Shown here: positions 23,417 to 48,492 of the stretch, in pieces
Numbering within the stretch: position 1 is the stretch's first letter
Layout of the letters: each line of letters begins with the position of its first letter
Origin: an uncultured Peptoniphilaceae bacterium
GTDB taxonomy: Bacteria; Bacillota; Clostridia; Tissierellales; Peptoniphilaceae
DNA length: 55,454 nt
Reading direction: 5' to 3'
Assembly: GCA_964523385.1 (NCBI GenBank)
Contig: CAZFXW010000001.1
Span: 1 to 55,454, forward strand
Translations under genes and position numbers: made by a program
Notes under the pieces: model-generated
The model's input: the letters and a program-made list of their open reading frames with translations, nothing else
The model's database searches: none
What the model was told of the DNA's origin: nothing

Positions 23417-23532
23417 GGCTCATTTTTATTTGATAAGTTCTCTATTAAGGCCGTGCTCAGCTGTTAGGAGAGTCTTGCAATTTGCGGAACTTTATATCTG
23501 ATTAATCTGTTCTTCTGTGGTATAATGGTAGC

Positions 23533-23697
23533 AATTGGAAAAAGTGAGCTAGTCCACATCAGGGAATGAGGTGAAAGGCCTCAGCAGCCCCCGCTACTGT
23601 AAGGCGAAAGCCAAGCCAGGATACATACCTGGGACTACGCTTAGGTACTTCGGCGGGAGGTTCTTAAAAACTAGGCCGCATTGCGGCCTTTTTTAAT
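23533..23697 (+). promoter_or_regulatory. Cobalamin (B12) riboswitch with an intrinsic terminator expression platform
   Basis: Core AGGGAAtgAGGTGAAAGGCCTCAGCAGCCCCCGCTACTGTAA, a B12-box-like GCCAGGATACATACCTGG, then GGCCGCattGCGGCC plus a T-run (23672-23697). An extended -10 (TGgTATAAT) lies at 23518-23526. Confidence 0.85.
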
Positions 23698-31924: not shown

Positions 31925-32504
31925 GTTAGCTGGGATTGGCCCGGGAAATCCTAGGCTTTTGACTGTTGAGGTTAGGGATTTGATTCTAGAGGAAGAGAGG
32001 GTCTTGGCCTTTAGGCGGGCTGGCCAGTCTCTGGCAAATTTACGGGAAGATATTGAGATTATTAGGACTAGGGGAGATATCTTACCTAAGCTGGCCCAGG
32101 GCCCTGCTTTGGTTTTGGCATCGGGAGATCCTATGTATTATGGTATTTTTGATTATTTAGAGCGAGAAGGGGTGGAGCTTGAAGTTTATCCAGGTCTTTC
32201 CTCCATCCAATATTTTGCAGCCCAGGGGAGTTTTTCCTGGCAGGATGCTTATCTAGGTAGTTTCCACGGTAGGGAGATGGATTTTTCAGGCCTAGAGGCC
32301 AGGGAAAAGGCTCTTTATTTTACCGACTCGGTTCACACGCCTAGTTATATTTCTAAGGCCCTCTACCAGAAGGGCTTTAGGGGCCAGATTATGGCAGGCT
32401 ATGATTTGTCCTATGATAGTCAATCGATACAAAATAGAGTGATTGGCCAGGTTTTCGAGGAGGTCTCGACCTTGGCCGTCGTGTATATTAGGAGAGAAAT
32501 ATGA
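31914..32504 (+). CDS. cbiE: Cobalt-precorrin-7 C5-methyltransferase
   Basis: LAGIGPGNPRLLT and ASGDPMYYG motifs. Directly precedes cbiT. Confidence 0.8.
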   Translation: MRAKLAGIGPGNPRLLTVEVRDLILEEERVLAFRRAGQSLANLREDIEIIRTRGDILPKLAQGPALVLASGDPMYYGIFDYLEREGVELEVYPGLSSIQYFAAQGSFSWQDAYLGSFHGREMDFSGLEAREKALYFTDSVHTPSYISKALYQKGFRGQIMAGYDLSYDSQSIQNRVIGQVFEEVSTLAVVYIRREI

Positions 32505-33046
32505 AGTTTTTAAGAGATGAGGATTTTATAAGAGGGGAAATACCTATGACCAAGGGGGATATAAGAATCCTAACCTTGTCCAGGTTAAAGATTAGTCCGG
32601 GTATGACCTGTTTAGACATAGGAGCGGGAACTGGTAGCGTGTCTATCGAGATGGGTAGGATGGGTGGTGTAGTTACCTCTGTGGAAAAAAGACCAGAGGC
32701 AGTTGAGCTTATTAAGGGTAATTCCCAGTTCCAGGATGTGAAGGTGAATATTATAGAGGGGACTGCTCCAGGTGATTTGCCTGACCAGATGTGGGATAGG
32801 ATATTTATTGGAGGATCTAATGGTAAGCTGAAAGAACTGCTCCAATACTCCTATGACCACTTAAACCCTGGTGGTAAGTTGGTTATCAACTGTATTATCA
32901 TTAGCAATGCGGTCATTAGCTACGACTTTATGAAGCACCACTTTACCAGTGCTTCTATGACCTTGGTTTCAATTGCCAACACTAACCAGTATGGCATGAT
33001 GATCGGGGACAATCCAATTTATGTTTTAGAGGCAACTAAGCTTTGA
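32501..33046 (+). CDS. cbiT: Cobalt-precorrin-6B C15-methyltransferase (decarboxylating)
   Basis: SAM-binding DIGAGTGSVSIE motif; 181 aa; follows cbiE. Confidence 0.8.
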   Translation: MKFLRDEDFIRGEIPMTKGDIRILTLSRLKISPGMTCLDIGAGTGSVSIEMGRMGGVVTSVEKRPEAVELIKGNSQFQDVKVNIIEGTAPGDLPDQMWDRIFIGGSNGKLKELLQYSYDHLNPGGKLVINCIIISNAVISYDFMKHHFTSASMTLVSIANTNQYGMMIGDNPIYVLEATKL

Positions 33047-33801
33047 TTTACTTTGTGGGAGCAGGGCCTGGGGCGGCAGACCTGATAACCGTCAGAGGTC
33101 TAGAGCTTATCAAGAAAGCAGATATTATCGTTTACGCCGGCTCCTTGGTTTCCAAGGACCATTTAAAGGCAGCCAAGCAGGGCTGTCTTTTCTATAATTC
33201 AGCTGAAATGGCCTTGCCAGAGATAGTTCAGGTCCTAGAAAAAGGGGCGAGGGAAGGCAAGTTGGCGGTTCGGCTCCACACGGGAGATCCGTCGATTTAC
33301 GGGGCTATTGGTGAGCAGATGAAGGAGCTGGATAAACTGGGACTGGCCTACCAGCTAGTACCAGGTGTCTCTTCCTTTACTGCCGCCAGTGCAGCGGTAA
33401 AAAAGGAGATGACCTTGCCAGGTCTTAGCCAGACTATTATCATAACTCGTTTGGCAGGACGAACTCCTGTGCCGGAAGATGAAAGGCTCCAGGACCTGGC
33501 TAGCCATGGTGCCTCTATGGCGATTTTCTTGAGCGTCCAGAATATGGATGGAGTAGTTGAAGCTTTAGAGGAAGGCTATGGGCGAGATGTAGCAGTGGCT
33601 GTAGTTTACAAGGCTAGCTGGCCAGAAGAGAAAATAGTCAGAGGAACCTTGGCAGATATAGCTGAAAAGGTGGAAGAGGCGGGGATTAGTAGGCAGGCTA
33701 TGATTTTAGTCGGAGATTTTTTAGAAGATGGACTGGATTTTGACTACTCAAAGCTCTACGATGAGACCTTTAGCACAGATTTTAGGCAGGCTGAGAGATG
33801 A
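33043..33801 (+). CDS. cbiF: Cobalt-precorrin-4 C11-methyltransferase
   Basis: IYFVGAGPGAADLITVRG and RLHTGDPSIYGA motifs. Confidence 0.85.
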   Translation: MIYFVGAGPGAADLITVRGLELIKKADIIVYAGSLVSKDHLKAAKQGCLFYNSAEMALPEIVQVLEKGAREGKLAVRLHTGDPSIYGAIGEQMKELDKLGLAYQLVPGVSSFTAASAAVKKEMTLPGLSQTIIITRLAGRTPVPEDERLQDLASHGASMAIFLSVQNMDGVVEALEEGYGRDVAVAVVYKASWPEEKIVRGTLADIAEKVEEAGISRQAMILVGDFLEDGLDFDYSKLYDETFSTDFRQAER

Positions 33802-34754
33802 TAGCCTATCTTTGTTTCACTAAGGGAGGCTTAGGCTTAGCTGAGACCTTGTCCCAGAAGAATCCAGGCAGGATTATCTACAATAGGGAAGAGAAGATTA
33901 AGCCTTTGATGGCAGAACTTTGGGCTCTAAAGGCTTTGGTCTTTATCTCTGCCAGTGGAATTGCCGTCAGGTATATAGCACCCTATGTGAAGGACAAGGC
34001 TAAAGATCCAGCGGTAATTGTAATTGACGAGGGAGGGACCTATGCTATTTCCCTTCTTTCAGGTCATCTAGGAGGAGCCAACGAGCTGGCCAGGGATTTG
34101 GCCAGGCTAGTTGGGGCTGAGCCTGTTATAACAACGGCTTCAGAAGTTAAAGGCCTAGAGAGTATAGACAGTTATGCCCAGAGGATGAATTTGGTTATTG
34201 AGGATTTATCCTCTTTGGCCAAGGTTATGGGTCCTTTAGTAGATGGGGCTCCTCTTTTTATCTATGGCCAAAGCCACTATCCCTATGATAATCTAACCAA
34301 CCTAGAGGGAGCCCAAGTAGTTCTGGTTCAAAGCGATGAGCTAGTTTCCTTTGACAAGCCGACGGCGGTCTTAAGGCCTAGGTCCTTAGTTCTAGGTTTA
34401 GGGGCTAAGAAAGGTGTGACCTGCCAAGCTGTTGGCCGGGCTATATCAGGAGCTTTAAAAGAACTAGGTCTGGCAGAAGGTTCAGTCTACCGGGTCAACA
34501 GTATAGACTTGAAGAAAGAAGAGCAGGGAATTTTAGATTTTTGCCAGGAAAAGGGTCTGGAGTTTTTTACCTACTCGGCCCAGGAACTGGACCAGGTGAA
34601 AGGTGATTTTGAGGAAAGTGACTTTGTAAGGTCGGTTACAGGCTTAGGGTCTGTATCCTCAAGGGCTGCCTTGGCAGAAGGTGGAGACTTGCTTTTAGAC
34701 AAGTATGTTTTAGATGGAGTTACGGTTTCCGTAGCTAGGAGGGAAGATGGGTAA
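33798..34754 (+). CDS. cbiG: Cobalt-precorrin-5A hydrolase
   Basis: A two-domain 318-aa protein with ..FISASGIAVRYIAP.. and ..LGLGAKKG... Sits between cbiF and cbiH, as in anaerobic cbi operons. Confidence 0.75.
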   Translation: MIAYLCFTKGGLGLAETLSQKNPGRIIYNREEKIKPLMAELWALKALVFISASGIAVRYIAPYVKDKAKDPAVIVIDEGGTYAISLLSGHLGGANELARDLARLVGAEPVITTASEVKGLESIDSYAQRMNLVIEDLSSLAKVMGPLVDGAPLFIYGQSHYPYDNLTNLEGAQVVLVQSDELVSFDKPTAVLRPRSLVLGLGAKKGVTCQAVGRAISGALKELGLAEGSVYRVNSIDLKKEEQGILDFCQEKGLEFFTYSAQELDQVKGDFEESDFVRSVTGLGSVSSRAALAEGGDLLLDKYVLDGVTVSVARREDG

Positions 34755-35469
34755 GTTATTTGTGGTGGGGCTGGGGCCTGGAGGTAGGGATTTAATGACC
34801 CTTAGGGCCTTAGAGGTAATAAAGAAATCCGATGCAGTGGTGGGTTACAAGCCCTATATTGAGTATATTGAGGATTTGCTTAATGGCAAGGAGGTCTTTG
34901 CCAATAGCATGAGGGGAGAGTTGGAAAGGTGCCAAAGGGCTATAGACTATGCCCTAGCTGGTAAGATAACGTCTATTGTATCAACTGGAGACCCTGGTAT
35001 ATACGGCATGGCCGGGCCTATCTTAGAGATGGCTCCAGAGTCCTTGGAGGTGGAAGTAGTTCCGGGGGTGACTTCCCAGCACTCGGCAGGGGCAGAGTTG
35101 GGAGCTCCACTTATGCATGACGGGGCTAATATCTCCCTCTCTGATTTGCTTACGTCTTACGATTTGATTATGGAAAGGGTGGAAGCGGCTGCCAGTTCGG
35201 ATATGCTTATCTCCCTCTATAATCCTAGGTCTATGGGTAGACAAAAACACTTGCCTCAGGCGCTGGAGATTATAGGCAGGTACAGGGAGGGTTCTACTCC
35301 TGTTGGCATTGTAAGGGATTCGGGTAGGCCGGGCACCCAGATTCTAATCACTAGCCTAGACCAGGTGGATGTAGAGCTGATGGACATGAAGACTATGGTG
35401 ATTATAGGCAATTCTAAGACCTTTATTAGAGGTGGGAAGATGATTACCCCGAGGGGATATGAGCTGTGA
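34747..35469 (+). CDS. cbiH: Cobalt-factor III (precorrin-3B) C17-methyltransferase
   Basis: LFVVGLGPGGRDLMTLRA and STGDPGIYGMAG motifs. Confidence 0.85.
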   Translation: MGKLFVVGLGPGGRDLMTLRALEVIKKSDAVVGYKPYIEYIEDLLNGKEVFANSMRGELERCQRAIDYALAGKITSIVSTGDPGIYGMAGPILEMAPESLEVEVVPGVTSQHSAGAELGAPLMHDGANISLSDLLTSYDLIMERVEAAASSDMLISLYNPRSMGRQKHLPQALEIIGRYREGSTPVGIVRDSGRPGTQILITSLDQVDVELMDMKTMVIIGNSKTFIRGGKMITPRGYEL

Positions 35470-36200
35470 TTTGGATTGTCGGTGGAACCGGTGAGACTCG
35501 GGAGCTAATCCATGGCCTAGGAGACATAGACTATGTGGTCACGGTGGCTACAGATGAGGGGCTGGATTTCCTACCAGATCCAGCTAAGGGACTGGTAGGA
35601 AGGTTAGATTACAAGCAAATGGTAGATTTGGTTAGGAAAAATAAAATTCAGCTTATTGCTGATATAAGTCATCCCTTTGCTAGCCAGGTTTCTGGAAATC
35701 TCAAAAAATTAGCCTTGGACTTAGGCCTAGCCTATCTTAGGTATGTGAGGCCAGCTATTGATTATGGCGGCAATGTTATTAGAGTTGGCTCCTATGAAGA
35801 GGCTTGTGATTTAATTCAAGGCTTAGAAGGGACTTTTTTCTTTACTACCGGAGTCAACAAGGCTGAGGACTTTATCCATGTTCAAGGGGATAGGAGATTT
35901 GTCTTTAGGGTCTTACCTGTAGCCAGTTCTATAGAAAAGCTTAGGGATTTAGGTTTGGAACTTAGGAATATCTATGCAGGCCTAGGGCCCTTTAGCGCTG
36001 GTTTAAATAAGGAGATGCTTTTAGCTACAGGAGCTAATTATTTGGTGACCAAGGAAAGTGGCAAAGACGGCGGTTTTTATGAGAAACTACAGGGCGCTGA
36101 AGCTGCTGGGGCTCTGGTTATTGTCATAGACAGAGAGGAAGAAGAGGGGCTAGGAGACATTAGCTTACTGATAAAAGAAATATATAAAATAATTGAATAA
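35466..36200 (+). CDS. cbiJ: Cobalt-precorrin-6A reductase
   Basis: IWIVGGTGETREL N-terminus, DISHPFA and TKESGKDGG motifs. Last gene of the operon. Confidence 0.8.
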   Translation: MIWIVGGTGETRELIHGLGDIDYVVTVATDEGLDFLPDPAKGLVGRLDYKQMVDLVRKNKIQLIADISHPFASQVSGNLKKLALDLGLAYLRYVRPAIDYGGNVIRVGSYEEACDLIQGLEGTFFFTTGVNKAEDFIHVQGDRRFVFRVLPVASSIEKLRDLGLELRNIYAGLGPFSAGLNKEMLLATGANYLVTKESGKDGGFYEKLQGAEAAGALVIVIDREEEEGLGDISLLIKEIYKIIE

Positions 36201-36271: not shown

Positions 36272-36862
36272 TTGGGCGACTCAAAAAATATTCTGATTGC
36301 TCAAGGTGGTGGCAGGTAGTTAGGCAACACTACCAGAATAGTAGGTTCTTTTAGAAGAGGGGCTGAAGAAGCGGGACATAGGTAGAATTAGTAAACTTGA
36401 ACAATTACAGAGTAGAAGGCTGCGTTGAGTGTAACTCTTGCAGGTTGACAAATGTTTGCGTTTTAGATGACGACTTTAATTCTATTGTGCCTAAGATAAA
36501 GGAAGCTGATGCATTGGTTATCGCTTCGCCTCTGTACTTTTGGACTATAAATACTAGGCTTCTAGCCTTTGTAGAAAGATTTTATTCAATTGCAAAGAAG
36601 GATGTCACCCAACTCTTTGGAGGGATCAGAAGTATGATAAGAAGGACTGTGCTCTTTTGATAACCGCATCAGATGATCAGCCATGGACTTTTGATCACGT
36701 CCACAATTACTACAACAATATTTTTGTCAACTATATGGGCTTTTATGACCTAGGTTCTATTCTTGCGGGAGGCTGTGGAGAGACCCATGGGCCGGCAAAA
36801 ATAGACAAGACTAGGTAGAGTTGGATAAGGCCTATGAATTTGCGAAAAACTTGTACAAATAA
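36272..36862 (+). pseudogene. Flavodoxin-like NAD(P)H-dependent FMN reductase / iron-sulfur flavoprotein gene, decayed
   Basis: Behind AAGGAGGAG: ..KNILIAQGGGR(TAG)LGNTTRIVGSFRRGAEEAGH. A frameshift follows, then VELVNLNNYRVEGCVECNSCR..ADALVIASPLYFWTIN (ORF 36397-36660). Further frameshifts give ..CALLITASDDQPW..GSILAGGCGE.. and ..LDKAYEFAKNLYK. Confidence 0.65.
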
Positions 36863-36877
36863 AAGTGCTAAAAAGGC

Positions 36878-37179
36878 TTGACATAAAATATCTTATCGGT
36901 TAAAGTATTGAATAACAGATATGATAAAGGAAAAATAGAAACTAGTAACTTTAGCAGAGGCTTTCAGAGAGTCGCCGGCTGGTGAGAGGCGATAAGATTA
37001 GCTAGGGTGAATACATTCTATTCCTTCCCACCGAATTGAGTAGGCTGGGACGGTTTCTCCCGTTATAGAGATAGGGTGTCGATTATTCTGCACTCGAAGA
37101 GGCAGGCCTCGCGAGGGGTTTGTGAATCAAGGTGGTAACACGAGTAAGCGCTCGTCCTTTATAGGATGGCGCTTTTTTA
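36878..37179 (+). promoter_or_regulatory. Promoter plus T-box leader (apparent Tyr specifier UAC) with a terminator/antiterminator
   Basis: Promoter: TTGACA 36878-36883, 17-nt spacer, TAAAGT 36901-36906. Stem I elements: AGAGAG 36966-36971 and TGGTGAGAG 36980-36988. Specifier context GAA-TAC-A at 37009-37015. AGTAGG 37039-37044 and CCCGTTAT 37059-37066. T-box motif AATCAAGGTGGTAACACGAG at 37125-37144. Terminator hairpin plus a T-run at 37146-37179. Confidence 0.8.
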
Positions 37180-37220
37180 TTTTGCCATTTTTGCTTAAAA
37201 TTATTTTGGAGGAACAATAG

Positions 37221-38669
37221 ATGACTAATATCAAATTTTTTGCAACAGAAGAAATACCTTTAGAGATGCATAGGGTGTCGGTGGTTTCGCCGCTGAAGTT
37301 GGTACCAGTTGAAGATAGATTAAAGGCTATCAAAGAAGCTGGATTTAACAATTTCTTACTTAAGAACAAGGATGTATTCCTAGATATGCTTACAGACTCA
37401 GGTGTTAACGCAATGTCAACAATCCAGCAAGCTAGTATGTTTATGGCTGAAGACTCCTACGCTGGATCAGCTACCTTTACTAGACTAGAGGCAAAAATTA
37501 AGGAAATTTTTGGAATGAAACACTTCCTGCCGACCCACCAAGGTAGGGCATCGGAGAACATTATCTCTCAGGTTTTCGTTAAAGAAGGTTCGGTTGTGCC
37601 GATGAACTTCCACTTTACCACTGCCCAAGCTCATATAGACAGGTTAGGTGGTAGGATTGAAGAGGTTATTATCGATGAAGGCCTTGTAATCACATCTGAT
37701 TGTCCTTTTAAGGGTAATATCGATCTGGAAAAATTAGAAAACCTGATAAAAGAAGTTGGGCCAGAAAATGTCCCCTTTATTAGAATTGAAGCTGGAACTA
37801 ACCTTATAGGTGGCCAGCCAGTCTCCCTACAAAATATCAGAGAAGTTAAGAAGATTGCCGACAAGTATGGAACAATTACGGTAATGGACGCTTCCCTACT
37901 TATGGACAACCTATACTTTAACAAGATTAGGGAGCCTGAGTGTAAGGATATGTCTATTAGGGAAATTACCAAGGAAATTATGAAGGAAATCGACATTATG
38001 TACTTCTCTGCTAGAAAGCTTGGATTCGCCAGAGGTGGTGGAATTGCAACCAACAATGATGAGCTAAACGAGAAGATGAAAACCCTGATTCCTCTATTTG
38101 AAGGTTTCCTCACCTACGGAGGAATGAGCGTTAGGGAGATGGAGGCTATAACCGTAGGTCTAGATGAGACTATGGAAATGGATGTAATCTCCCAAGGGCC
38201 AGAGTTTATCAAGTTTATGGTTAACAAATTAGATGAGAAGGGAATTCCGGTAGTAACTCCTCCAGGAGGTCTAGGCTGTCATCTAAACGCAGGAGCCTTT
38301 GTAGACCATGTACCTCAAGACCAATACCCATCAGGAGCCTTGGCAGCAGCCCTGTTTATAGCTGGAGGTATAAGGGGAATGGAGAGGGGAACCCTGTCTG
38401 AGGCTAGAAAGCCAGACGGTTCAGAGACACTAGCGGCTATGGAACTGCTTAGGCTAGCCTTGCCGAGAAGGGTCTTTACCCTAAGCCAGGTTATGTACAC
38501 AATCGATAGGATCCAATGGCTGTACGAGAATAGAGAGCTAATTGGAGGCCTGAGATTCGTCAAGGAACCAGAAACTCTTAGATTCTTTATTGGAGAATTA
38601 GAGGCTATTGGCGACTGGCCAGAAAAGTTAGCAGCTAAATTTAGAGAGGATTTTGGAGATTCTCTATAA
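37221..38669 (+). CDS. PLP-dependent beta-eliminating lyase (tryptophanase / tyrosine phenol-lyase family)
   Basis: Collinear by eye with TnaA/Tpl over its whole length: ..DRLKAIKEAGFNNFLLKNKDVFLDMLTDSGVNAMS..SYAGS..LPTHQGRASENI..GGQPVSL..FSARKLGFARGGG (PLP-Lys region)..ALPRRVFT..RFF... RBS GGAGG lies 8 nt upstream. Substrate (Trp or Tyr) is not decidable by eye. Confidence 0.8.
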   Translation: MTNIKFFATEEIPLEMHRVSVVSPLKLVPVEDRLKAIKEAGFNNFLLKNKDVFLDMLTDSGVNAMSTIQQASMFMAEDSYAGSATFTRLEAKIKEIFGMKHFLPTHQGRASENIISQVFVKEGSVVPMNFHFTTAQAHIDRLGGRIEEVIIDEGLVITSDCPFKGNIDLEKLENLIKEVGPENVPFIRIEAGTNLIGGQPVSLQNIREVKKIADKYGTITVMDASLLMDNLYFNKIREPECKDMSIREITKEIMKEIDIMYFSARKLGFARGGGIATNNDELNEKMKTLIPLFEGFLTYGGMSVREMEAITVGLDETMEMDVISQGPEFIKFMVNKLDEKGIPVVTPPGGLGCHLNAGAFVDHVPQDQYPSGALAAALFIAGGIRGMERGTLSEARKPDGSETLAAMELLRLALPRRVFTLSQVMYTIDRIQWLYENRELIGGLRFVKEPETLRFFIGELEAIGDWPEKLAAKFREDFGDSL

Positions 38670-38696
38670 AGGTATAGATTCTATATTATATATTAG

Positions 38697-38724
38697 CGGA
38701 GATGGTTAACCATCTCCGTTTTTT
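38697..38724 (+). terminator. Rho-independent terminator after the lyase gene
   Basis: CGGAGATGG-ttaa-CCATCTCCG hairpin followed by TTTTTT. Confidence 0.85.
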
Positions 38725-39350
38725 GTCTTATATACTAGATTAGGCGGAATTTAGCAAAAGTCTTTCATTTTATAGGGGGGTATTTTGAAGTTTTGCAGAG
38801 AAAGTGGATTACTTATGCGAAAATATCAAAAATAATAAAAAAGCCCCAGATTGAATTTTAGCATTAAGTAAAAAATGTTATTATTACTTAAATTTAACAC
38901 TTGTAAGGGAACAATTAGTAACTATTACAATAAAAACTGCTAATCGATATATTATTATGATTAATTAAGAAATAAATGAAATGTTTTCACGTTTCTTAAT
39001 TATCGCAATTATTTTTCTTTCCCATGTTCATTTTAGAATAATGCGAATAAGTTGCACAAGAATTTAACAATGTATCCCAAAAAGTGGTTTAAATTAGGGA
39101 TAGGTTGTTTTTTAACAATTTAAAACTACATAGTTATTTATCATCTTCTTTTATTTTGAGAAAAAGGCTTTTAATTTCTCTTTTAGTGGTCAAAAGGGCC
39201 TATTTTTACCAATATTGTGCTAAAGCAAAAACTATTGTGCACCTAGTTGATAGCAATTATACTGGTTTTAGCAGCTGGGAATTGAGCCCAGCCCTTAAGA
39301 TAAAAAATTCAGATTTAATATAAATAAAACCAACTGGGAGATGAAAATAA

Positions 39351-48415: not shown

Positions 48416-48492
<77 letters not shown>

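Follow-up and report, generated by a model that had tools for sequence, protein, structure and literature searches.

A T-box leader with a tyrosine specifier precedes a gene for a lyase related to tyrosine phenol-lyase (TPL) in a 55,454-nucleotide stretch of DNA from an uncultured Peptoniphilaceae bacterium (GenBank assembly GCA_964523385.1, contig CAZFXW010000001.1, positions 1 to 55,454 of the forward strand), which as a whole we call the window. Two aspects of this pairing are new, namely the combination of a tyrosine T-box with a TPL-like gene, which is kept in many lineages, and the recognition of these genes as a discrete, remodelled subfamily. That the enzyme makes tyrosine from phenol, by the reverse of the lyase reaction or by beta-replacement with serine, is in our estimate about an even prospect. 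An earlier reading of the same letters (the original prediction) had proposed a tyrosine T-box in front of a lyase of catabolic type.

The leader matched the Rfam T-box model RF00230 over its full length (model positions 1-219 of 219) at 36923-37162 on the + strand, with a score of 109.3 bits against a gathering score of 93 and an E value of 2.7e-23. Elsewhere in the 55 kb, Rfam matched just a cobalamin riboswitch (23501) and a tRNA-Val (48416). Stem I (36928-37025, + strand), delimited by the covariance model and by covariation, comprises basal helices, the specifier loop, the AG bulge AGAGAG (36966-36971), and the distal loop GGCUGGUGAGA (36977-36987). The bulge and the distal loop align to conserved RF00230 columns, both are kept in 26 related leaders, and together they form the predicted platform that docks the tRNA elbow. 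The Rfam alignment assigns the segment AGUAGG..CCCGUUA to the Stem II / IIA-B region.

Further downstream on the same strand, the T-box sequence AAUCAAGGUGGUAACACGAG (37125-37144) and the antiterminator together span 37125-37159. Folding of 37129-37159 gave the canonical two helices of an antiterminator, AAGG[UGGUAAC]ACGAGU-AAGC-GCUCGUCCUU, at -7.6 kcal/mol, with the 7-nt bulge UGGUAAC at 37133-37139. The UGGU of this bulge (37133-37136) is placed to pair with the tRNA 3' end ACCA, a complementarity that implies a discriminator A in the tRNA; bacterial tRNA-Tyr has A73. An intrinsic terminator (AAGCGC.CGUCCU / AGGAUGGCGCUU plus a U tract; 37146-37183, + strand) follows, in which a hairpin at 37146-37174 precedes the U tract. 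It is far stronger than the antiterminator (minimum free energy of the region, -27.8 kcal/mol; z, -5.1), and its 5' arm overlaps the antiterminator 3' half, so that 37146-37159 is common to both structures and the two are mutually exclusive. The AGAGAG bulge, the distal loop, AGUAGG..CCCGUUA, the T-box sequence, and the terminator thus all lie where the original prediction had put them. Every feature that we examined in the sequence is present in this RNA, an ordinary member of the T-box family, and its predicted mode of action is that of a classical transcription-attenuation T-box, with tRNA-Tyr read from a UAC specifier.

Is UAC the codon that the leader presents? In the covariance model, the strands of the specifier loop are 5' ACUAGUA and 3' GAA-UAC-A (37009-37015), in which the AGUA/GAA context of an S-turn is recognizable. 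Directly 3' of GAA-UAC-A comes UUCUA (37016-37020), which closes the loop by pairing to UAGAA (36936-36940). In this register the triplet UAC (37012-37014, + strand) has GAA (37009-37011) before it and the purine A (37015) after it. Because UAC and the purine after it together abut the closing helix, the specifier is assigned as UAC, a tyrosine codon.

The relatives of the lyase gave a broader view of this assignment. A word-index search returned at least 8000 homologous proteins at E <= 1e-50, a metagenome scan gave at least 600 stretches, and a T-box was found before a lyase homolog in 33 distinct leaders. Among the metagenome loci with enough upstream sequence to judge, the proportion was 28/73 (38%). 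Rfam T-box matches were obtained for Miniphocaeibacter massiliensis (L003; 118.6 bits), Sporanaerobacter acetigenes (L004/L005; 123 bits), a metagenome contig (L007/L008; 119 bits), and six further metagenome loci (104.8-122.8 bits). A Stem I covariance model made from four Rfam-anchored leaders recovered 26 Stem I elements in one alignment. As for the remaining leaders, L054, L074, and L079 were recognized by Rfam alone, L093 comes from a Peptostreptococcaceae genome, and L038, L047, and L050 were counted because they contain the T-box core and the specifier loop, insertions having pushed their scores below the Rfam threshold.

In all 33 leaders the specifier loop has UAC at its 3' end, in contexts that vary (GAA-UAC-A, AAA-UAC-A, GAAA-UAC-A, GAAU-UAC-A, GAAGU-UAC-A, CAAU-UAC-C/G, and GAA-UAC-G/C), and all 33 carry the UGGU bulge, each time followed by a hairpin with a U run; the core GGUGGUA is common to the related leaders. 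Compensatory changes were observed in 17/17 tested Stem I pairs across the 26 related leaders, with a covariation score of 0.84 compared to 0.24 for shuffles and <=0.18 when the 3' partners were slid. The loci with a T-box fall into at least eight clades of a neighbor-joining protein tree, interleaved with clades without a T-box, and the G+C contents of the loci range from ~0.27 to ~0.63. This spread over clades and base compositions argues that the T-box wiring has been maintained by selection across deep divergence.

These data bear directly on whether the specifier was misassigned and the leader, read in a shifted register (AUA, ACA, or AAU), answers another tRNA. An assignment from sequence is a rule and not a measurement, and the Rfam alignment of one relative (L007) does move the register by one. 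Against such a shift, the register of the covariance model, the rule that the codon plus a purine stands before the helix, and the covarying closing helix all give UAC, which moreover is invariant in the 33 leaders despite varying bases before it (GAA-, AAA-, GAAU-, GAAGU-, and CAAU-) and after it (A, G, and C). We regard a misassigned specifier as extremely improbable, and the GAA-UAC-A at 37009-37015 that the original prediction took to indicate tRNA-Tyr is borne out both by the RF00230 alignment and by the 33 related leaders.

The loci without a T-box include a Bacteroidales metagenome-assembled genome (MAG) (L002), a high-GC Clostridia MAG (L001), Massilibacterium senegalense (L006), and a Caldicoprobacterales MAG (L092). 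A scan of a genome collection with the window protein as the query yielded two loci, both ~60% identical and both without a T-box. Canonical TPL representatives were found in Patescibacteria (P0139, whose relatives are Bacteroidota and candidate phyla), in Actinomycetota (Gaiellaceae), and in Vibrio. To our knowledge, Bacteroidota and candidate phyla do not use T-boxes.

We then asked what kind of enzyme is encoded by the lyase open reading frame (ORF) (37221-38669, + strand; 482 amino acids), a lyase dependent on pyridoxal 5'-phosphate (PLP). The protein matched Pfam PF01212 (Beta_elim_lyase) with 163 bits (cut-off, 27) and the broad NCBIfam 'tryptophanase' subfamily model NF009709 with 580.6 bits (cut-off, 285). 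It stayed below the cut-offs of the TPL equivalog TIGR02618 (439.8 bits versus 720.7) and of the tryptophanase equivalogs TIGR02617 (350.3 bits versus 825.8) and NF053783 (400 bits versus 750). The closest solved structures are TPLs (E values of 1e-109 to 1e-112, ~40% identity), with tryptophanase structures ranking after them (E values of 1e-84 to 1e-100), and homology at this level (E ~1e-110) fixes the fold of the window protein as that of the solved TPLs. In an exhaustive search of representatives clustered at 50% identity, the subfamily contained one full-length representative (P0121, 61% identity); outside it, a cousin (P0128) was 49% identical and all other representatives were at or below ~44%. 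This gap in identity marks the subfamily as discrete. Identity is >=60% within the subfamily and ~40% to TPL. Judged by its sequence, the enzyme is neither a canonical TPL nor a tryptophanase and is a member of a distinct TPL-like subfamily. The 'catabolic-type' TPL/TnaA label of the original prediction accordingly has to be given up, the protein belonging to a separate subfamily that fails both equivalog cut-offs.

The cousin P0128 (480 amino acids) belongs to hyperthermophilic Crenarchaeota (Desulfurococcales, Acidilobaceae) and is the closest outgroup to the bacterial subfamily. It has most of the remodelled signature described below (D69, M217, R256, R262, and L343), which hints at an old origin or at transfer between domains. 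A different architecture was seen in P0122-P0125, P0129, and P0131-P0134, proteins of ~850-930 amino acids with two tandem beta-eliminating-lyase domains at 32-37% identity.

Which residues set the subfamily apart? We mapped residues to Citrobacter freundii TPL numbering and compared 120 homologs. Invariantly kept were F36, T49, Y71, Q98-G99-R100, F123, T124, N185, D214, S254, the PLP lysine K257 (K266 in the window protein, encoded at 38016-38018, + strand), M379, R381, R404, F448, and F449. Replaced invariantly, or nearly so, were seven others (E69D, R217L, K256R, D258L, N262R, M288F, and H343L), and six of the positions concerned (E69, R217, K256, D258, N262, and H343) are near-universal across TPL-type and TnaA-type representatives. 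From TPL structures, we take E69 and N262 to be part of the monovalent-cation site and R217 and K256 to flank the cofactor. The paired E69D and N262R replacements suggest that an arginine occupies the cation site. The residues of the ring pocket and of the C-C bond chemistry are thus conserved, and the environment of the cofactor and cation is remodelled.

Tryptophan indole-lyases and TPLs are discriminated by D137/F304/V394/I396/H463 (E. coli numbering) versus T124/M288/M379/R381/F448 (PMC5805759). At these five positions, the subfamily has T, F, M, R, and F. The indole-pocket residues D137, V394, I396, and H463 of tryptophanase are absent, their places being taken by T, M, R, and F. Four of the five are of TPL type, and at position 288 the subfamily has Phe, as tryptophanase does. 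The original prediction had preferred TPL over tryptophanase; the pocket (T124, M379, R381, and F448) agrees with this choice, whereas the failure to reach the TPL equivalog cut-off and the remodelled cofactor/cation site do not. Because every TPL residue for the p-hydroxyphenyl ring and the C-beta/C-gamma bond is kept, tyrosine (or a close analogue) and phenol are to be expected as substrate or product.

The same residues speak to the idea that the substrate is unrelated to tyrosine and phenol (serine, cysteine, or S-alkyl-cysteine elimination, or transamination) and that the link to a tyrosine T-box is indirect. Six residues found almost throughout TPL and TnaA have been replaced, among them H343 and the cofactor neighbors R217 and K256, which would fit this idea, as would the failure of both equivalog models. 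However, Y71, T124, M379, R381, F448, and F449 in 120/120 homologs are hard to explain without an aromatic p-hydroxy ligand, and tyrosine-specific regulation fits a tyrosine-type pocket. We consider an unrelated substrate quite unlikely.

How might a lyase of this type serve a cell that is short of tyrosine? In T-box regulation, the uncharged cognate tRNA stabilizes the antiterminator, and the downstream gene is transcribed. Here, uncharged tRNA-Tyr would pair at two places, through its anticodon with the UAC of Stem I and through its free 3' end with the UGGU bulge. The antiterminator (37129-37159), weak by itself, would then prevail against the strong terminator (37146-37183), and the lyase gene would be transcribed. 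Low tyrosine charging would in this way lead to lyase expression, and the enzyme would supply tyrosine, by the reverse reaction from phenol, pyruvate, and ammonium or by beta-replacement from phenol and serine. The locus is present in ~20 wastewater or bioreactor DNA runs, and such habitats are rich in ammonium and contain phenol. The phenol to be salvaged would be expected to be available in wastewater, bioreactor, and gut communities. A more specific proposal sees in the subfamily a dedicated 'tyrosine synthase' that uncharged tRNA-Tyr turns on and that is fed by environmental phenol with pyruvate/ammonium or serine; we hold this to be possible, with a chance somewhat short of even. In such a synthase, a lyase scaffold would be tuned for synthesis by its remodelled cofactor site, which may be independent of the cation. 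That the six invariant replacements (E69D, R217L, K256R, D258L, N262R, and H343L) adapt the enzyme to tyrosine supply is speculation.

Published work on TPL and on T-boxes provides the background for a role in tyrosine supply. Canonical tpl is activated 32-fold by TyrR and tyrosine, and TPL is reversible, with a reverse kcat 1.5 times the forward one, and also performs beta-replacement (PMC10170061). The catalogued targets of tyrosine T-boxes all raise tyrosine supply: tyrS, the NhaC-type transporter gene tyrT, tyrA, and aro genes (PMC2494555, PMC3766115), as well as the phenylalanine hydroxylase gene phhA of the Bacillus cereus group, another tyrosine-supplying target (PMC2494555). Since the lyase would be induced by tyrosine shortage, opposite to the tyrosine-induced catabolic tpl, we infer that the enzyme most likely supplies tyrosine. 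The conserved tyrosine-starvation wiring, opposite to that of canonical tpl, strengthens the premise from which the original prediction proposed a reverse (salvage) reaction or a different substrate.

The opposite view is that the enzyme is an ordinary catabolic TPL that converts tyrosine to phenol, pyruvate, and NH3, with the T-box serving, for example, pyruvate or nitrogen harvest in general amino acid starvation. Such a view draws on the catalytic and phenol-binding residues, which are fully TPL-like, on several hosts that we take to be amino-acid-fermenting Clostridia or Tissierellia, and on the many subfamily members without a T-box. Yet degrading the very amino acid that is sensed as scarce would be self-defeating, and catabolic tpl is induced by tyrosine and not by its absence (PMC10170061). 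The presence of UAC in 33/33 leaders argues for a tyrosine-specific signal and not a general starvation signal, the catalogued tyrosine T-box targets all increase tyrosine supply, and the subfamily departs from catabolic TPLs at six otherwise near-universal positions. We therefore rate a catabolic role as unlikely.

The apparent paradox would also vanish if the enzyme destroyed ring-substituted, DOPA-like tyrosine analogues that block tyrosyl-tRNA synthetase. Such inhibitors would raise uncharged tRNA-Tyr and thus induce the gene, so that T-box logic is satisfied, and TPL accepts many ring-substituted phenols and tyrosines (PMC10170061). This explanation is speculative, however: the para-OH-binding residues T124 and R381 are unchanged and give no sign of a different ring, and no resistance or efflux genes are linked to the lyase gene in 86 loci. 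We find it very unlikely.

Several observations weigh against the favored explanation. The Michaelis constants of the canonical TPL reverse reaction are 12 mM for pyruvate, 20 mM for NH3, and 1.1 mM for phenol (PMC10170061), and at such millimolar values salvage would need high phenol or an improved enzyme. Phenol-producing, transport, or tyrosine genes were not linked to the lyase gene in the 86 loci, and among the sequencing runs searched, no RNA run contains the lyase locus. About 62% of the assessable subfamily loci have no T-box, and these include Firmicutes-type members (Massilibacterium, Caldicoprobacterales, and the Clostridia MAG listed above). Lastly, five leaders (L007, L076, L081, L084, and L087) have C or G, and not A, between UAC and the helix, and in these a shifted threonine register is formally possible (ACC in the first four and ACG in L087).

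The transcription unit in the window is compact. A sigma-70-type promoter (TTGACA-17 nt-TAAAGT; 36878-36906, + strand; 10/12 consensus matches) lies 17 nt 5' of the start of the T-box match and is the sole promoter-like site on the + strand within 36700-38800; position 36878, with which the original prediction began, is the first base of its -35 hexamer. The ribosome-binding site (RBS) GGAGG (37208-37212, + strand) stands 8 nt before the ATG of the lyase gene, and a terminator closes the unit at 38695-38726 on the + strand (11-bp stem, -17.7 kcal/mol; z, -5.7). As predicted from these signals, the unit is monocistronic and the T-box controls the lyase gene alone, in keeping with the proposal that the T-box governs a beta-eliminating lyase (PF01212) gene.

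The surroundings of the unit consist, on the 5' side, of cobalamin-synthesis genes (CbiG, tetrapyrrole methylase, and CbiJ) and a split flavoprotein gene, and on the 3' side, of small ORFs without known function and a class II fructose-bisphosphate aldolase gene. None of the genes flanking the unit in the window has a link to tyrosine. Across the 86 lyase loci no neighbor gene recurred, and the only recurrent ORFs were shadow ORFs inside the lyase gene. The cobalamin riboswitch (23501-23646; 51.2 bits) precedes a long + strand cbi run (CbiG, tetrapyrrole methylase, and CbiJ; 32501-36200) that stops ~700 nt before the T-box promoter. Just 5' of that promoter is the gene for a flavoprotein resembling NADPH-dependent flavin mononucleotide reductases (PF03358), in two overlapping frames (36397-36660 and 36657-36818); this split gene at 36397-36818 is either a frameshifted pseudogene or an assembly error. 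The tRNA-Val (GAC) lies at 48416-48492 on the - strand.

The leaders of relatives contained further elements. In the Sporanaerobacter clade (L004, 3910-3991; L028, 1413-1494), the stretch from the T-box terminator to the lyase gene contains a short ORF with its own RBS, ~90 to 10 nt ahead of the lyase ATG. This ORF begins with MDSDYYY, that is, with three consecutive tyrosine codons, and this start is kept through synonymous changes (UCU/UCA and UAU/UAC) whereas the remainder of the peptide varies; the ORF ends in a stop codon that overlaps or adjoins the lyase RBS. The ORF may provide a second, ribosome-mediated layer of control that depends on tyrosine codons. The window leader has no ORF of this type. 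Tyrosine-rich leader peptides were also considered as an alternative control in loci without a T-box and were rejected, being seen only in this one T-box-bearing clade.

Six high-GC leaders (L010 at ~1440-1480, L015, L022, L023, L026, and L030) have an additional hairpin 30-60 nt ahead of the ATG, in the interval from the T-box terminator to the RBS. Its stems covary (GCGUCCGCC/GGCGGGCGC, GGCACC/GGUGCC, and GUGCC/GGCAC) around an invariant loop, GCCAAAGGG, and in three of the six its 3' arm is able to pair with the RBS instead. No Rfam family matched this GCCAAAGGG-loop hairpin. In L076, L081, L084, and L087, the spacer between terminator and ATG holds a conserved element, GAUACCCGC-GGCG-GCGGGAU, with a CCCGC/GCGGG hairpin. 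The compensatory CCCAC/GUGGG version of this hairpin in L087 indicates that the element acts as an RNA hairpin and not as the 'RYPRRRD' peptide of overlapping small ORFs. In one metagenome organism (L007, 5962-6061; L008, 4151-4250), an azaaromatic (yjdF) riboswitch precedes a DUF2992 gene adjoining the lyase gene, and L047 has an upstream match to PYLIS_2 (mtbB pyrrolysine insertion) at 709-808.

Conserved leaders were also seen at loci without a T-box. Three of these, L092 (the Caldicoprobacterales MAG; ~1330-1410), L035 (~1290-1400), and L045 (~1300-1420), have in common a leader rich in UAG/GGUAG, such as GGGUAGGAUGGUAGGGUGGUAGAAUA, with a terminator of a GC hairpin and a U run at its end. 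This leader, in which the repeats are irregularly spaced, had no Rfam match at E <= 1 and looks like an attenuator of a different kind, possibly protein-mediated. A second clade without a T-box (L037, L044, L061, L062, and L073), surrounded by T-box clades, has in common, ~60-200 nt ahead of the ATG, a box resembling a promoter (TTGACAA) and a conserved leader with UACUCCUAUCUUUGC and then the hairpin CCCUC-NNNN-GAGGGG. Neither of these two clade-specific leaders matched an Rfam family or gave a functional clue.

Few computational clues to gene function are as reliable as a T-box specifier, and the one described here assigns a role in tyrosine supply to thousands of proteins labelled 'tryptophanase' or 'tyrosine phenol-lyase'. 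Because of these database labels, such proteins are counted as indole or phenol producers. If salvage is real, models of phenol and tyrosine flux would change for gut and wastewater microbiomes, the T-box regulon would gain a new enzyme class, and a natural synthesis-biased TPL variant would be at hand, relevant to the biocatalytic production of tyrosine and of analogues of L-DOPA (L-3,4-dihydroxyphenylalanine). A genuine synthase would further mean that anaerobic communities of the gut, of wastewater, and of digesters have a previously unrecognized route for acquiring tyrosine and for cross-feeding phenol. Whatever the direction of the reaction, six invariant replacements of near-universal TPL/TnaA residues pose a defined structure-function question. 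Neither a link between a T-box and TPL or tryptophanase nor a mention of the remodelled subfamily was found in the literature searched, a scope outside which lie Vitreschak 2008 and Gutierrez-Preciado 2009, which may mention it, and the RegPrecise T-box tables contain no TPL or tryptophanase target.

How does the system compare to known ones? Its RNA resembles the T-box of Bacillus subtilis tyrS, the founding tyrosine-specific member of RF00230, in Stem I, in UAC followed by a purine, in the AG bulge and distal loop, in the T-box sequence with a UGGN bulge, and in transcriptional control by competing antiterminator and terminator. Unlike in tyrS, the target here lies outside the aminoacyl-tRNA synthetases, biosynthetic operons, and transporters and comes from a family known for degrading the amino acid that is sensed. 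By analogy, the closest precedent for the proposed logic would be the tyrosine T-box of phhA in the B. cereus group (PMC2494555), where likewise a single enzyme makes tyrosine from a non-standard precursor and not by the prephenate route. The two differ in enzyme family and in precursor, which is phenylalanine for phhA and presumably phenol here, and tyrosine formation is the normal direction for phhA.

Canonical TPLs, such as those of C. freundii and Erwinia herbicola (EC 4.1.99.2; TIGR02618), align with residues 12-460 of the query at ~40% identity and have in common with it the PLP lysine, Y71, T124, M379, R381, R404, F448, F449, N185, and D214; their reaction is reversible, and beta-replacement with serine is known. 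The window protein differs from them by its score below the equivalog cut-off, by the E69D, R217L, K256R, D258L, N262R, M288F, and H343L replacements, by ~25 extra C-terminal residues (482 versus 456 amino acids), and by opposite regulation, tpl being activated by TyrR and tyrosine. The proposed physiology has its own parallel. Tryptophan synthase beta salvages indole, for instance in genital Chlamydia strains, where this function has been demonstrated. The lyase is of fold type I and tryptophan synthase beta of fold type II, the substrates differ, and the function proposed here is predicted from sequence and regulation. What the two would share is a PLP enzyme that joins an aromatic ring excreted by neighbors to a three-carbon amino acid unit and so yields the amino acid.

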